From NCBI GenBank assembly GCA_963702845.1, contig OY969763.1:4160001-4224000 (forward strand): a DNA stretch of 64,000 bases. Direction: 5' to 3'. Position numbers and translations under genes: made by a program. This document shows positions 26,303 through 37,184 of this stretch, one piece after another. Origin of the DNA: an uncultured Verrucomicrobiae bacterium. Its GTDB lineage: Bacteria; Verrucomicrobiota; Verrucomicrobiia; Limisphaerales; Palsa-1400. The notes beneath the pieces were generated by a model. That model was given only the letters and a program-made list of their open reading frames with translations, made no database searches and was not told the origin of the DNA. How positions within the stretch are numbered: the stretch's first letter is position 1; each line of letters begins with the position of its first letter.

Positions 26303-29147
26303 TCACCTTGGCACCTCTCGAAGACGATAAAATTTTTCCGCCTCGAGTCCGTTAGGATCAAGCAAAGTGTTGTTCGAACCAGTTCCTGCCATCGGATCGC
26401 CAAGCGGAAACCAGCCATTGATAAAATCATCACTATATTCCGGCCTGATAAGCTTTCGCCGCATCCGAATTCCATCGAACAAAATCGAACCGCCATCGAT
26501 CATTTGGAACTTAAATGAAGGCCGGTGCAACGCGCACGTATTCGTAAACAAGGAACATTATACCCACTGACGCGCACGACGGATTTAGACCACCCAGCGC
26601 CGAACTCGCATACTCGCCGCAATCGTCTTCGATTCTCCCGGCCAAAGCGAAATATAATTATCCGAGTAAACAACCGGCAGCACCTCGAACCCACCATCGC
26701 CAGCAGTAACTTCGGCACGGACGAAATAAGCGATATTGCTTGGGCTCGAATTCGTCAAAAAAATCGTCGCCATTTCCTGCCCATCCGCCAATCTGCCGGC
26801 AGGCAAACACGATCAGGTTAGTGTTCGACGGAAGATTATTCAGCCCGGTCAAGTTCGCATAACTGCTCACCGACGTATGATACCAATTGGTTACCGTCCC
26901 TAGTTTATCCGGCAAGATGGAATACGCATAAACATTGTCACTCACATTGTGTCCGATTGAATCCGCCAACCGCAATCGAATAAGATAAGTCGTTGTCAGC
27001 CCGCTCGCCCCCGAAATATTCATCGCAGTCGTCGATGTATTCGCCGGAAAATCCATCGTCACCGAATTCGTATAATTCAGCGTTAAAGCAGGGAAGTATA
27101 AACCGACTTCGAAGCAGTAAGATTCGTCGCTGCCACAACGTCGATTGAACACCTTAATATTCGTCGTTTTGTAATCGTAAAGAATGTGAAGCGGCTCCAG
27201 CGCCTTTTTCGTTCCGAAATAACCTCCGCCCGGCTTGAGAAAGTAATCGTACAAATTCCAGTGAACCGATGGCCACGCATTGTTCATCATCCAAAAAATC
27301 GTCCCCTGCGGGAGCGTATACGCGTTTGCTCCAAACGCCTCAAACTGCGCCCGCTGCGTTTCATAATTCAGCATCTGTGCCCGTTGCGCATATTGCGTGA
27401 TATTCGTACAGTCGTTCCATAACGACTCATCACACCCGGCGAATAAAAACTCAGTCCCGCAAAAATTCCCGCGCCAGCGTGATACCCATACACACTCCCG
27501 ATCGGCCACAAATCCGCTGGCGCAATAAATTTCCTCAAACTTTCCTCCGGCGGCACAACCTCCGTCCCTTGCTCAACACAAATCCCAAACGCTCCACCAA
27601 GATTCGTATCCGCATACCAATAAACCGGCGGCTCCCACACATACGGCCCATTCATCTTCGGAACACTCCCGCTCGAGTTATTATAAGAGGCGACATTATC
27701 GAGCGTCGGATTTTGCCAATGCAAAGTCGTCGCGATGTTTTTATACCCCGACAGCACCGAAGGTTTGGCAACTCATCACTCCCATAGGCCCACACCAACG
27801 CGCTCGGATGCGCCCGCATCAAGCCGCATTTGGCTGTTCAGCGAAGCATTCGCCACCGACAAATCTTCCGCACTCCACAAACTCCATTCCGCCCAATACG
27901 TGCAACACACAAATCCCGGCATCAGCATGACACCTGCCCGATCGGCATCCGCGTAAAAATCGTCATTACCGAGAATCCCTTCAAACCGAACCACATTCAG
28001 CCCCATATCGCGCGCATAATTGATATGCGTCTGGTTGATGTTCGTGTCCCAGCGCATGAACATATCCCAAACATACGCCGCGCCGCGCAGCAACAAGATT
28101 CTGCCCATTCACCTTATAGCCGCTGTAAGTCGCCCCATATTCCGACGCCGTCAGATAATCGGTAACCTGACGGATCCCAAAATTCACCGACGCCGCATCA
28201 CTCTGCGTGCCATTAACAGTGAACGTCAGTTGCAGATTATATAGCTCCGGACTGCCCAGCGGAATCGGCCACCACAACGCCGGATTCGTCACCTGCAATT
28301 GCGAAAAAATCGTCGGATCAAAAACAATCTCCCGACGATCATTGGGATTAAGCGTTACATTTTGCGAAAAATTGATGCTCGGATACCCTTGTTTCGTGAT
28401 CAATCCGTTCAAAGTCCCGTTCACCACATTGGTAGTCCCATTCGATGCGTCCACATAAACCGTCAAACTCGCCGAATTCGTCGCCGGCAACGGAAGCACC
28501 GTCTTCACATAAGGATCACGCAACGCCACCGGCCCGGTTGCATCCAATAGCACCTTCCCCCACAGCCCGGCATTCCAATCCGGCGGTTTCGGATTCCAAT
28601 CTGCATACCAAAACGAAAGGTTTGTCCCCGCGCTGCTCGGCGGAGTGATCAGAATAGCCAACACATTCGACCCGCCGTTATTGATGAGACTCGTCACGTT
28701 ATACTCATGCGTGACCATCGTGCCGACCGCATTCGTATCAAGTTGCGTTCCGTTGAGCCAAATTTTCGCCCGATACGCGATGCCCCTAAACCGCAGCCAA
28801 TACTGTCCGCCGGGCGTTGTATTTGTCGGCGCAACAAACTGTCCGCGATACCACCACGTCTGCTTCGTCAAATCCGGCACCGCCTGCAGGTTCGTCCCAA
28901 AAAATAAATTCGTGTAAACATTATTCGTCACCAACCCCGCCATCACCGTCGAGGGCACCGAAATCGGATACCAACCCGAAACGCTATAACCCGGTTGCGA
29001 AATCATCGCGCCACTATCCGCAAGTCCCGTTTGCGTGCGCAGTGACCACCCCGTCGAAAGCTCGGTCGTCTGAGCGCCCAATCGCGCCAACACTGAAAAT
29101 GCCACCACAATGGCTAACAGCTTTCGAAGCACGGAGACAATATTCAT
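26303..29147 (-). CDS. GH2 glycoside hydrolase, exo-beta-D-glucosaminidase (CsxA)-like, multiply frameshifted
   Basis: WYPISVPSTV, WWYRGQF, DWNPKPPD.N.GLW, LWWP..LGSPELY, FGIRQV, MGLNVVRFEG, KMNGPYVW.PP.YWY, WMMNNAWPSVHWNLYDY. Confidence 0.85.
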
Positions 29148-29365
29148 CGCGGTAAAAAGGAGCCAAAAGGCCAGTGGTTGGGTACGGCGTCCATTCGGCC
29201 TGACCATGGTCAATTTTGCAATCCATTTTGCTGACGGTAATTGCTCGCCACATTAAAGGTGAGTTGCGCTTCTCGTCGGCCCCCATCCGCATTTATCCCA
29301 AACGCATAACCGGTGGCACAATCGCCGTTGCGACAGACCGTGGTGAGTGGGATAGATTTCTACAT

Positions 29366-32406: not shown

Positions 32407-32948
32407 TCAAAAGGCAACCTCTCCGCCAGCGCTCCGCAACGATGGTTCCGCCAACGCATCACGAATCGTTTTCACCGGCAGAAACAACTCAAGCTCATTC
32501 GACGGCATCGAAATAAATCCGAATTGCTCGTAATATCGCTTGGCCTGTTGATCTTTCGCATCCACAAAAAGACCGATCCCACCCGCCGAGTTGAAATTTC
32601 CATAAACTTCTCCATTGCCGCAACCAACAATATTTTCCCGATGCCTTGCCGTTGCGACATCTTGGCAACGGCCAATCGCCCCAACCGAATGCCAGCTACA
32701 TCCCGCGGCAGTTTTTTCGCCTCAACCGGCGTGAGTGACTCTGACTTTATTTGGCAAATGTTCAGTGAAAAGAAACCAAGAATCGGCTTCGGCTCGACTG
32801 CCTCCGCATCGATCAAAACGAATGTGCGCGAAATTCCCCGCTCCGCGTGTTGCCGCGCCGTCTGTTTCAGAAACAAGTTCAGAGGCTCACTCCCGCAGTC
32901 GAACCCGTCTCGATCGTGAGACTTCGCCAGCAATTCAATCTTACGCAC
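32407..32948 (-). CDS. GNAT acetyltransferase toxin (TacT/AtaT-like); C-terminal frameshift
   Basis: HDRDGFDCGSEPLNLFL, LGRLAV, QRQGIG; corrected frame gives LFVDAKD...YYEQFGF. Confidence 0.88.
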
Positions 32949-33225
32949 GCACCGTGCCCTTAAACGCTTTCACGGCGTCCTTCAAACGCGTGTTGGGTTT
33001 GGGCGGATGATCCAGCAGGGCCAGCACTTGGCGCGCGTCTTTCTGGGAAAGTCGAATGACCGACTCGCGCTCAATCACCCGTTGCGCCTCCAAATACGCC
33101 GTTTGCACTACGAACTGGTTCACCGTCGAACCCAATAGCTCCGCCGCCTGCTCCAACGTGTCTCGCACGCTATCAGACACGCGAGCGGTAATCCTCTTGC
33201 GAGGCTCTTCTAATACACGTTCCAT
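32941..33225 (-). CDS. DUF1778 ribbon-helix-helix antitoxin (TacA/AtaR-like)
   Basis: RITARV....LEQAA.L.G.TVNQFV....A..VI.....I.LS.......L..PP.PN.RL; overlaps toxin start. Confidence 0.9.
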   Translation of the reverse strand: MERVLEEPRKRITARVSDSVRDTLEQAAELLGSTVNQFVVQTAYLEAQRVIERESVIRLSQKDARQVLALLDHPPKPNTRLKDAVKAFKGTVRA

Positions 33226-33318: not shown

Positions 33319-33957
33319 CTATTCCTGCGCCTTCACCGTGGCAGCAACCTTCATCACTTCCTTTGTCAATTCCGTGATCCGCCCCCAATTCCTCTCCGCA
33401 ATCAACTTCCGATCCGCCAGCCACGTCCCACCGATCGCCGCCGTCGCCGACATTGAAAGATACTCCGCCGCATTCGCCTGACTGACACCGCCCATCGGAA
33501 TGAACTTCACACCCGTGTGCGCAAATGGCGCAGCCAAAGCCTTCAACATCGCCGGCCCGCCAAGCACGCCCGCGGGGAACAACTTCAAAATGTAGCACCC
33601 CAACTCAATCGCCCGATCCGTTTCAGTTGGCGTCATCACCCCGGGAATAAACGGCACCTTCAAATCGCGCGCCGCCGTAACGACTTTTTCATTCAACCCC
33701 GGAGCAACAGCAAAAGTAGCCCCAGCATCAATCGCCTGCTTAAGCTGATCAGTCGAAAGCACAGTCCCCGCCCCAACATGCATCTGCGGAAACGTTTTCC
33801 GAATTGCGGCAATACTCGCCAGCGCACAACTAGTCCGCAACGGCACCTCGAGCATATCGAGCCCGCCCGCCAACAACGCTTCACAAACCGGCAACGTATC
33901 TTCGATCCGATCAAAGATGGCGATGTAGATGACCCTACGCTGCAACAGCACTTTCAT
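33319..33957 (-). CDS. eda: KDPG/KHG aldolase
   Basis: EVPLRT, VGAGTV, F.V.PG, PGVMTPTE, KLFPA, P.GGV. Confidence 0.92.
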   Translation of the reverse strand: MKVLLQRRVIYIAIFDRIEDTLPVCEALLAGGLDMLEVPLRTSCALASIAAIRKTFPQMHVGAGTVLSTDQLKQAIDAGATFAVAPGLNEKVVTAARDLKVPFIPGVMTPTETDRAIELGCYILKLFPAGVLGGPAMLKALAAPFAHTGVKFIPMGGVSQANAAEYLSMSATAAIGGTWLADRKLIAERNWGRITELTKEVMKVAATVKAQE

Positions 33958-34363: not shown

Positions 34364-36329
34364 ATGAGCGACCTTCAAGCCATCGAAGCCGCCTTGGTTC
34401 GGGCTGTGCGCCGTCGGCGTTTGCAGCGCGCCTGGGCAAACTTATGGCGTGGGGTTTTCATCGGCGCGCTCCTCTGGCTCGTTGCTCTCTCCGTTTACAA
34501 ACTCGCCCCGGTTCCGTTCTCCATTGTTCCCATCGCGGGTGTTGCTGGACTTGTTTGCGTCATCGCCGGGTTTCTTTATGGCTGGTTTCATCGTCAAACC
34601 ATTCAGCAAACAGCGCGGTGGCTGGATGAAAAACAAAACCTCCAACAACGCCTCAGCACCGCCTTGGAAATGGCCGAAGGCAATCGCGATGAAAATTGGC
34701 GGCAGCTGTTGATTTCCGATGCCGCAAAGTTTGTGGAGAAGTTCGACCCGCGCAAGCTCCTGCCGTTTCACTTGCCCCGCATCAGCCGATGGTCCTTATT
34801 GATTCTCGCGCTCTGTGCCGGCTTGGGTTTCGTGCCCGAATATCGCAGCAAAGCTTATCTCGATAAAAAGCAGGATGCCGAAGTCATCAGAGCAGTCGGC
34901 GACAAACTGGTCGAACTGACCAAACAAAACCTGCAACGCCGCACGCCGATGATGGAACCGGTTCATAAAGCCGTCGAAAACGTCGAGAAAGTCGGTTTGC
35001 AACTTGGCAAGAATCCGATTACCCGCAGCGACGCGCTGAAAGACCTCGCCAAGGTCCAGGAACAGTTGAAGTCGCAAATGAAGGAGCTGGTCAAGAGCCC
35101 GGCCTATAAAGCGCTCGAACGCTCCGCCCGCAATGAAACCAAAGGCGGCAATACGTTGCCCGACCTGCAAAAGAAAATCGACGCCATGCAAAAGGCGCTT
35201 GGCGACAAAGCTAGCGCTGATGCGATGGACAAGCTGAATCAGAAAATGCATCAGGCCAAAGCCGCCGCCGCCGCGATGCCTAACGATGGCTCGGCAAAAT
35301 CCCAAGAGGCCAAAGCCCAGATGGAAAAGATGCTTTCCGAGCTGAACAAGGAAGCAAAGGACATGGGCCAGCAAATTCCAAATCTCGACGCCGCGATTGA
35401 AGCGTTGAAAAAGGGTGAAACAGAAAATTTCGCGAAGGACATGGAAGCAGCCACAACCGATTTGGAAAAGCTGAAGGACATGGCCAAGCAACTTGAATCG
35501 ATGCAGAAGGAAGCCGCGCAGATGGGCAAAGATCTTCCGCAACAATTGCAACGCGGCCAGGCCGAAGCGGCGCAGCAGACTTTGCAGAAGATGATCGAAC
35601 AATTGAAGTCCGGCAAACTGTCCAAGGAAGATGCACAGAAGATGCTCGACGAAGTTTCGCGTTCGGTTGATCCGGCGAGTCCTTACGGCAAAGCGGCAGA
35701 CTTTCTGAAACAAGCGACCAAGGAAATGCAGAACGGACAAAAGCCCGACGCAGCACAATCGCTCGCCAATGCTTCGAAGGAACTTCAGAACGCGATGGAA
35801 CAAATGCAGGACGCTCAATCGATGATGGCGTCGTTGGACGCACTGGACAAAGCCGAGACTGCCATCGCCAATCGCAAGGCATTTGGCACATGTCCGTGGT
35901 GCGGCAAGAAAGGTGGTACGTGAAGCGGTGGCATGTGCGCGAACGGTCGTTCGCGATCAGGCCCGGGAGGGCGAGGCGGGAATGGTGTCGGCACATGGGC
36001 CGATGAAAATGGTTTGTATCCCGGTTGGGCGAATGGCGAGAACACCGAAAACCGACCGGACATGGCTGGTAAAGGCCAGACGGACCGTGGCGATGGCCAA
36101 CTCGCCCAAAACCTGAATCCTGAAAAAGTTCACGGACAAGTCAGTCCTGGCGGCCAGATGCCGAGCATCACGCTCAAAGGTTTAAGCATCAAAGGAAACA
36201 GTTCAGTGGAGTAACCAGGAAGCCGCCAGTGCCGCACAAAGCGAAGCGCAGAGCGCGCTGAATCACGACCAGGTGCCGCGCGCTTACCAAGGCGCGGTGA
36301 AGGATTACTTCGACGATCTCAAGAAGTAG
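34364..36329 (+). CDS. Membrane-anchored long coiled-coil protein (DUF4175-like) with in-frame TGA at 35921 (possible selenocysteine) and a +1 indel at ~36213
   Basis: 3 TMs, RLSTALE motif, Q/K/M-rich coiled coil, CPWC...(TGA)...C cluster, Gly-rich linker; corrected end VPRAYQGAVKDYFDDLKK*. Confidence 0.75.
35938..35955 (+). other. Candidate bacterial SECIS hairpin
   Basis: cgcgaac-GGTC-gttcgcg, perfect 7-bp stem; the loop begins 21 nt after the in-frame TGA. Confidence 0.5.
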
Positions 36330-36332
36330 AAC

Positions 36333-37184
36333 CTAGGAGTTAGGCTCAGTCTCCTCAGTGTCCTCTGATACCGATTGCGCATTTCCAGAGGCGTAACGGC
36401 GCAAATATTTAACAGCAACTGCGATGTCCCTCGGCCACGGCGCTTCGATCTTTACTTCGGCTTTGGTGATCGGATGAGTGACGATCAATTTTTCGGCGTG
36501 CAAAGCCACTCGATCCATCAGCGGTCGCTCGGTCTTACCTGGCTTCAGCCGATAGTCATGTTTCAACGACGAAAGTAGCAACGGTTGTCCGCCATAATCT
36601 TCGTCGCCGACAATCGGTAACCGCACGTGTCTCAGATGAATGCGAATCTGGTGACTGCGCCCGGTGAGCGGCCGGCATTCGATCAACAGAACTCTGCCGA
36701 ATTTTTCGCGAATCGTGAATTGCGTTTTGGAGCGTTTGCCGTTTTTCGGATCAATGCGCATCAGTCCAAGTCGTAGTTCGTTCGGGGCAAGCTTTGCGTC
36801 GACCTCAAACGTGTCACCCGGCGGAGTTCCACGAGCGAGTGCAACATAGACTTTGTGCGGTTTTTCCGAACCGAACTGAGCCGCGAGATCGATGAGGGCG
36901 GGTTTGTCTTTCGCGAGCAGGATGACACCGCTGGTTTGGAAATCGAGCCGGTGCGCGTTCATCAGGTAACTGAGGTTGCGCGACTTCGCCCACGGCTTCC
37001 CCTGCTCTATTCCGGCATGGAGTAGTTTCATCAGGTTGGGCCGATTCGGATCATAACGATCGGGAGAAACGAGCAAGCCCGCCGGCTTATCAACAGCGAG
37101 CAGGTGTTCGTCCTCGTACAGAACCGGGATTTCCCAGAACTCTTTTGTGGCCGGCGAAGAAAGTTTAATCATGTCTCCAGCCAC
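36333..37184 (-). CDS. RluA-family RNA pseudouridine synthase
   Basis: VDKPAGL, HRLDFQTSG (catalytic Asp), TGRSHQIR, PIVGD.DYG, LHA. Confidence 0.93.
   Translation of the reverse strand: MAGDMIKLSSPATKEFWEIPVLYEDEHLLAVDKPAGLLVSPDRYDPNRPNLMKLLHAGIEQGKPWAKSRNLSYLMNAHRLDFQTSGVILLAKDKPALIDLAAQFGSEKPHKVYVALARGTPPGDTFEVDAKLAPNELRLGLMRIDPKNGKRSKTQFTIREKFGRVLLIECRPLTGRSHQIRIHLRHVRLPIVGDEDYGGQPLLLSSLKHDYRLKPGKTERPLMDRVALHAEKLIVTHPITKAEVKIEAPWPRDIAVAVKYLRRYASGNAQSVSEDTEETEPNS

Follow-up and report, generated by a model that had tools for sequence, protein, structure and literature searches.

The window analysed here, a stretch of 64,000 nucleotides from an uncultured Verrucomicrobiae bacterium, contains a long reading frame that continues beyond an in-frame TGA codon. 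This raises the question of whether the codon is read as selenocysteine (Sec), as a stop or as another amino acid, or whether it is an error in the sequence. An earlier note on this DNA had put the gene forward as a candidate selenoprotein. Reading the frame that opens at position 34364 confirms the observation on which that proposal was based: codon 520 is TGA, at 35921-35923 on the forward strand, in the context C-P-W-C-G-K-K-G-G-T-(TGA)-S-G-G-M-C. The frame then stays open for 96 more codons, matching the approximate figure originally given, and the CxxC-x6-U-x4-C spacing assigned to the surrounding residues is correct. The features of this region are as follows.

34364..36214, + strand: reading frame of a membrane-anchored helical-rod protein (P0001), with one TGA read through; 616 codons to the TAA at 36212-36214
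35891..35938, + strand: Cys/Sec cluster C510-x2-C513-x6-U520-x4-C525, including a GGT-U motif; opens a Gly-rich linker modelled with low confidence
35921..35923, + strand: TGA, the putative Sec codon
35938..35955, + strand: SECIS-type hairpin cgcgaac-GGUC-guucgcg, with a 7-bp stem and a GGUC loop (35945-35948) 21 nt past the UGA
35984..35998, + strand: conserved GVGTW motif that closes the linker, from homologue alignments
36212..36215, + strand: one-base insertion giving a false TAA, seen as a single gap in a blastn comparison with contig L213
36216..36329, + strand: C-terminal tail in a displaced frame, with the motif [VI]P..Y...V..YF common to the whole family, from near-invariant columns of alignment A5

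The TGA had been described as a single in-frame stop, unlike the frameshift lesions nearby. The gene as a whole nevertheless has a frameshift as well, as a one-base insertion relative to L213 produces the TAA at 36212-36214. This insertion, which is probably an assembly error, shifts the last 37 conserved codons into another frame that ends with the TAG at 36327-36329; full-length homologues of the Cys form are 640-675 aa long. The conservation of GVGTW downstream of the TGA implies that selection acts on the part of the protein reached by read-through.

The source genome (G000) is assembled as one 6.03-Mb contig, is 89.8% complete and has a high indel error rate. With so many frameshifts in the assembly, it was necessary to rule out that the TGA itself arose in the same way. 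An origin of the codon in sequencing error or in the decay of a pseudogene would accord with the state of the assembly and with the frameshift in this very gene, but the same TGA is kept at this codon in assemblies made separately, with a DNA identity of 74-83%, and seven further protein clusters end at it, making such an origin extremely improbable. A genome of a second species of the genus (G002), 87% identical and assembled separately into 680 contigs, has TGA at codon 520 followed by the hairpin, as do the metagenome contigs L213 and L214. From four soil DNA runs, one contig (X4; 151 nt, 35783-35933) is without a single difference across the TGA, although it ends 10 letters beyond the codon and was not counted as support. 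The gene is flanked by those for a KDPG aldolase (33319-33957, - strand) and an RNA pseudouridine synthase (36333-37184, - strand), an order also kept in L092 and L213.

The best seven of the 120 protein matches listed (75-94% identical) are 518-519 aa long and end right before codon 520; one of these shortened database proteins is assigned to Limisphaerales, an order of Verrucomicrobiota. The remaining 113 span the linker, and all but one of these (592 aa) are 640-675 aa long. Relatives within the host's taxonomic family have Cys at the column of U520, in the pattern CPxCGDxSG[KR]C-x4/5-HC, such that Cys or TGA is what alignment of the homologues reveals at this position. In a quick tree, the ten rows that carry U or are shortened form one clade with a support of 100.

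The genome also encodes the means of decoding UGA as Sec. The genes for tRNA-Sec (selC), SelD, SelA and SelB are all present, in one operon at C1:2.713-2.719 Mb, with selA, selB and selD scoring above cut-offs. The selD gene has an in-frame TGA of its own, with a hairpin 32-33 nt downstream. A transglutaminase-core gene (PF01841) is situated between selA and selB (G000:C1:2713000-2718700; L001, L002, L010, L013), and a similar gene is mentioned in a planctomycete Sec operon in the accessible text of PMC4807772.

Elsewhere in G000, UGA is an ordinary stop, terminating 634 of 1752 long ORFs. Reassignment of UGA to Trp throughout the genome would not be without precedent, as UGA-to-Trp lineages have been reported from this phylum (accessible part of PMC13462651), but it is scarcely conceivable here given this use of TGA as a terminator. 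Furthermore, the gene itself has ten TGG codons against one TGA, tRNA-Sec(UCA) and tRNA-Trp(CCA) are both present, and the column is occupied by Cys in relatives.

Searches of G000 for other Sec proteins detected no in-frame TGA in its matches to AhpC-TSA (14), thioredoxin (9) or rhodanese (10), and a CMD search returned no match. A TGA in a molybdopterin match (L226), considered as a possible Sec-containing formate dehydrogenase, was ruled out as a frameshift in NuoG; the nuo operon at this locus (C1:1433000-1441500) has many frameshifts, affecting NuoF, NuoG, NuoH and others. In this non-exhaustive survey, made up of searches for five families and a scan of the genome, the only selenoproteins seen were SelD and P0001.

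The 7-bp hairpin reported downstream of the TGA, with its GGUC loop 21 nt after the codon, was found as described, with a stem energy of -9.6 kcal/mol. Compared with shuffled sequences, the stability of the 70-nt fold is unremarkable (z = -0.79). The hairpin was assessed against a bacterial SECIS model (loop of 3-9 nt, stem of 4-16 bp, G in loop position 1-2, spacing of 16-37 nt and energy <= -7.5 kcal/mol), the values and consensus of which come from section 5 and the Fig. 2A legend of PMC13188914, and which was scored with our own implementation using ungapped stems rather than with bSECISearch. With a loop of 4, a stem of 7 and a spacing of 21, the window hairpin agrees with the model in all respects. 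Of the 634 long ORFs of G000 that terminate in TGA, 14 agree with the model at that codon, or 2 with a stricter version; the rare feature is the position plus the G-containing loop, not a hairpin alone. A genome-wide scan of G000 for read-through placed the locus first among 14 TGA candidates, while missing selD through its spacing filter; run with stricter thresholds, the scan missed the locus. A search of Rfam gave no match. The codons TCG CGA TCA near the hairpin had been thought atypical for the gene, and this is true of CGA, with 1 occurrence among 25 Arg codons, and of TCA, with 0 among 26 for Ser, but not of TCG, which accounts for 9 of those 26.

All nine distinct TGA loci from the host's order agree with the SECIS model, compared with 13 of 154 Cys codons in the linkers of Cys forms. 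A stricter test of shape without an energy term also admitted 14 of the 154 Cys codons, all with hairpins weaker than -7.5 kcal/mol. Seven of the nine have the loop 21 nt from the UGA, while in the other two the distance is 22 and 18 nt; between G000 and G002, the spacer is one codon shorter and the stem longer, leaving the 21-nt spacing unchanged. The hairpin is kept in homologues with differing stem sequences: five distinct stems have 2-4 pair types per position, and arms crossed between them pair in 44 of 100 cells, a soft control in that the stems had been chosen for pairing. These pairs were counted by a script anchored on the loop, as MAFFT failed to bring the hairpins into register.

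The relationship between the TGA and selA, the one Sec machinery gene searched for beyond G000, was studied in 401 genomes of the order, of which 261 have the protein family, 140 have selA and 111 have both. Whether the linker contains a stop could be seen in 111/111 selA-positive and 149/150 selA-negative genomes with the protein, G187 being unmatched by the second query. A linker TGA is present in six of the 111 selA-positive genomes (G000, G048, G130, G182, G364 and G106) and in none of the 149 selA-negative ones (Fisher p = 0.0056, with kin not independent); the sample consists of incomplete MAGs, and one selA-negative member (G334) is an unpublished genome. The six represent only four lineages, and the chance that all four would be selA-positive at the base rate is 0.03. 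Two further candidates were dropped: a TGA in G174, as a frameshift artefact, and a stop in G186, as the terminal TAA. Although most copies of the protein are Cys forms, selA is also commoner alongside the family (111/261) than in genomes without it (29/140), an enrichment that may reflect only genome size or lineage.

These distributions bear on the possibility that UGA is a true stop, in either a split gene re-initiating at the ATG at 35933 or a truncated allele. This would make use of an ATG only 9 nt past the TGA, and would take at face value the gene calls that end seven database proteins at this codon. However, the restriction of the TGA to selA-positive genomes would then go unaccounted for, homologues are single ORFs, and the ATG lies inside the Cys motif, with none after the TGA in the forms from family f19 or G364. 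Termination here is accordingly regarded as highly improbable.

Within the order, the Sec codon is not fixed in place. It lies 19-26 codons before GVGTW, after KKGG[TR] in the host genus, IGSGK in family f19 and IGNGR in G106, and as UxxC after GHGWG in G364; Cys counterparts exist for these TGA positions. The rows with U fall into four groups in the quick tree, the starred branches of which require at least two changes. In 105 of the 111 selA-positive genomes with the protein, the linker has Cys or no Cys, not Sec, and across homologues the number of linker Cys ranges from 0 to 8. As most Sec-capable genomes do without Sec here, and some homologues do without any linker Cys, Sec and even the linker thiols are dispensable. 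A scan of the genome contigs with a degenerate pattern proved unspecific, with only L133 (the same sequence as L022) belonging to the family among the loci examined; a scan for the linker motif gave at least 190 rows, mostly noise.

Beyond the order, a profile search of 250 other genomes of the host phylum found the protein in only one. Profile A3 matches 93 of 151 genomes of Planctomycetota (the phylum of G670), many of the matches covering the N-terminal membrane part only. Fifteen full-length planctomycete genes read through TGA to a shared [IV]P..Y...[VI]..YF tail, a number that is not a frequency, as the loci were partly chosen for signs of a stop. They contain 19 TGA sites, of which 16 agree with the SECIS model, compared with 5 of 68 Cys codons. 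In four of the genes (L300, L389, L391 and L404, from G818, G738, G708 and G707, respectively) there are two TGA codons, with a distance of 8-15 codons between them; L391 has its second UGA within the loop of the hairpin belonging to the first. selA is present in each of the 16 TGA genomes tested, whereas 9 of 37 genomes from the same search lack it. Other planctomycete sequences (L275, L276, L279 and similar) are much longer paralogues, with open frames of 1000-1900 aa, and have no more than the N-terminal membrane region in common with the family.

The family is also found in 61 of 101 genomes of the phylum of the Abditibacterium genome G825, Abditibacteriota according to NCBI and, we believe, Armatimonadota in GTDB. 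Of the best 30 loci, 28 are full length and 13 of these have a TGA, in every case after GG[TG] or AGT; 11 of the 13 agree with the SECIS model. selA is present in 13/13 TGA genomes, as opposed to 10/15 non-TGA genomes. The GGT-U motif likewise precedes codon 520 in the window, GG(T/G)-U being frequent in distant homologues, and in L429 and L425 AGGT-C forms have Cys in place of Sec.

The codon, the hairpin, the machinery, the conservation and the co-occurrence strongly support recoding, and on this sequence evidence the UGA at 35921-35923 almost certainly encodes Sec; the gene product is very probably a selenoprotein of an uncatalogued family. The original proposal is thereby supported, the sel genes being present, the homologues having Cys or TGA in this column and the hairpin being kept over differing stems. 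Incorporation would follow the ordinary bacterial route, with SelB and Sec-tRNA binding the GGUC hairpin 21 nt downstream of the codon. The predicted product has about 655 residues, with three transmembrane helices and a long helical rod, after which come a flexible Cys/Sec linker and the conserved tail. The N-terminal part of this architecture is encoded as follows.

34439..34837, + strand: three predicted transmembrane segments (approximately residues 26-47, 50-75 and 140-158) around a conserved helical hairpin, from hydropathy, charge and models
34850..35872, + strand: long all-helical rod (approximately residues 163-503), from AlphaFold2 (pLDDT 72; 80 in a Cys homologue)

The linker and tail have pLDDT < 50, and the models contain two final helices in the tail but no folded knuckle. 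The net charge is +2.7 before the third transmembrane segment and +0.6 after it, which, together with hydropathy, suggests an N-terminus inside and a C-terminal rod outside the membrane.

Neither P0001, the 47 members of A3 nor 13 distant homologues matched anything above cut-off in NCBIfam, and the same was true in Pfam of P0001, family members and distant homologues; PDB sequence and Foldseek searches gave nothing at E <= 0.001. The protein had been called DUF4175-like, and a faint resemblance exists, in that both have N-terminal membrane segments and long helical low-complexity regions, but it remains below cut-off and the protein is not a member of that family. P0001 does not match DUF4175 (PF13779), one of ten members does so at E 0.004 and none of 47 at E <= 0.001, while one distant homologue scores 21.6 bits against a cut-off of 27.3. 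DnaJ-like CxxCxGxG repeats occur in the linkers of L043, L048, L271 and L292. The DnaJ zinc finger (PF00684) was not detected in P0001, and its best score among distant homologues was 21.9 bits (L292, E = 2e-4; cut-off 32.7).

Of the 80 best-scoring order loci (out of 261), five have too short a flank; among the other 75, all distinct, 50 have moxR no more than 1.4 kb downstream. The neighbours were typed as AAA_3 (MoxR), DUF58 and BatA-vWA, with DUF58 and BatA-vWA following in some loci. In the phylum of G825, adjacency to moxR is seen in 17 of 30 loci and in Planctomycetota, with short flanks only, in 1 of 16 regions. The direct upstream placing of the gene in those 50 order loci is the likeness to MoxR AAA+/DUF58/BatA-vWA modules; the differences are that the window protein matches no Pfam or NCBIfam family, and that in the host's taxonomic family the gene is not beside moxR, an 83%-identical MoxR and a DUF58 protein being encoded in G000 at C1:1.19 Mb, some 3 Mb away. 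Among 80 MoxR loci from many phyla, a full-length homologue was found nearby in 20, with a linker TGA in 0/20. MoxR-vWA pairs have been described as capturing and remodelling peptides for complex assembly or metal insertion (section 8 of PMC7159879). Gene order in the relatives points to a membrane partner of a MoxR-DUF58-vWA chaperone module, with which the protein may act jointly.

Our tentative preference as to its role, held with rather less than even confidence, is for the Cys/Sec linker as a periplasmic arm, held in position by the rod and active in thiol/selenol redox chemistry or in metal binding. During envelope protein assembly driven by MoxR/vWA, such an arm might make or rearrange disulfide and selenenylsulfide bonds, or it might bind Zn. 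Sec would then be an optional, more reactive substitute for one Cys, with several gains or losses. A fixed metal/redox site, as originally envisaged, goes beyond what the sequences indicate, given the variable number of linker Cys, the moving position of Sec and the low confidence with which the linker is modelled. The many homologues lacking a linker thiol, and the 105 of 111 Sec-capable genomes of the order in which this gene is without Sec, speak against a conserved chemical role. An analogy, though no more than that, can be drawn with PSA2, LQY1 and CYO1, luminal DnaJ-like zinc-finger membrane assembly factors for which disulfide-isomerase activity has been proposed (accessible text of PMC4806229). 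These are membrane or luminal assembly factors that have a thiol cluster of the CxxCxGxG type in common with the window protein. Beyond the motif, however, the two are not homologous; P0001 has only one CxxC, and the motif is missing from many of its homologues.

Alternatively, the linker could be cytoplasmic and form a Zn knuckle of purely structural importance, Sec being one of the ligands and having no part in redox chemistry. The CxxC and two further Cys/Sec residues would supply four ligands in the window protein and in family f1, and the DnaJ-like repeats noted above could be seen in the same light. This nevertheless seems doubtful, as many homologues have only 0-2 Cys, the charge bias favours an outward tail and the models lack a folded knuckle.

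Recoding might also be real but mainly regulatory, with the selenium supply determining whether a truncated rod or a full-length protein with its tail is produced. All Sec sites found are upstream of the conserved tail, and both the movement of Sec relative to GVGTW within the order and the several U sites without a nearby Cys (L293, L302, L421 and the second U of L300) would be compatible with this. However, Sec replaces Cys wherever columns are comparable, including the AGGT-C forms, which fits a chemical role, and double-Sec genes are hard to account for by a switch alone; regulation as the main function is consequently judged decidedly unlikely. A bolder reading can be imagined, although as a whole it is improbable: these would be widespread non-enzymatic envelope selenoproteins in three phyla, in which the mobile GG(T/G)-Sec serves both as the reactive arm of MoxR-vWA machines and as a selenium-dependent switch for a docking tail, and they may be the main reason that the Sec machinery is kept in genomes such as this, where the searches turned up SelD as the only other selenoprotein.

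To our knowledge, redox enzymes and proteins with a thioredoxin fold make up almost the whole of the bacterial selenoproteins catalogued so far. The window gene resembles those decoded by SelB through a SECIS within the ORF, of the E. coli fdh type, in its UGA, in a stem with a small G-containing loop 16-37 nt away, in the presence of SelA, SelB, SelD and tRNA-Sec, and in having Cys homologues. It differs from known bacterial selenoproteins in that its product is neither an oxidoreductase nor a metalloenzyme and has no thioredoxin fold, and in that Sec is situated in a Gly-rich flexible linker of a membrane-anchored helical rod, shifts in position by lineage and is doubled in some Planctomycetota. 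The family had been said to be unfamiliar as selenoproteins, and in agreement with this it is absent from the 119 prokaryotic selenoprotein families in Table 1 of PMC13188914. No description of it was found in the accessible parts of BSepDB (PMC13326102), deep-Sep (PMC12013277) and bioRxiv 10.1101/2022.07.06.499078, or in a wider literature search, which returned no paper joining selenocysteine, MoxR and UGA. One 'hypothetical' planctomycete Cys/Sec candidate with a SECIS, in Table S9 of PMC4807772, could be a member. While the decoding route is known, this is a high-confidence candidate for an uncatalogued, non-enzymatic, multi-phylum family with a mobile and sometimes double Sec.

The replacement of Cys by Sec marks a chemically active spot in an otherwise featureless protein, and so offers a handle on the function of the MoxR/vWA operons. 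It also calls for a correction of annotation, as databases contain the genes in shortened or divided form (7/7 of the closest clusters among the matches listed). More generally, Sec appears to arise or persist at several positions, twice per chain in some cases, across three phyla, and the family may explain the Sec machinery of genomes without a Sec-containing formate dehydrogenase.

Two other loci in the window were noted. A two-gene unit at 32472-33225 (- strand), presumably a DUF1778 antitoxin and GNAT acetyltransferase toxin pair, has a GNAT frame that is apparently shifted near its end. A gene at 26658-29213 (- strand), which we take to be glycoside-hydrolase-like, is in several frame pieces, probably through further assembly indels.
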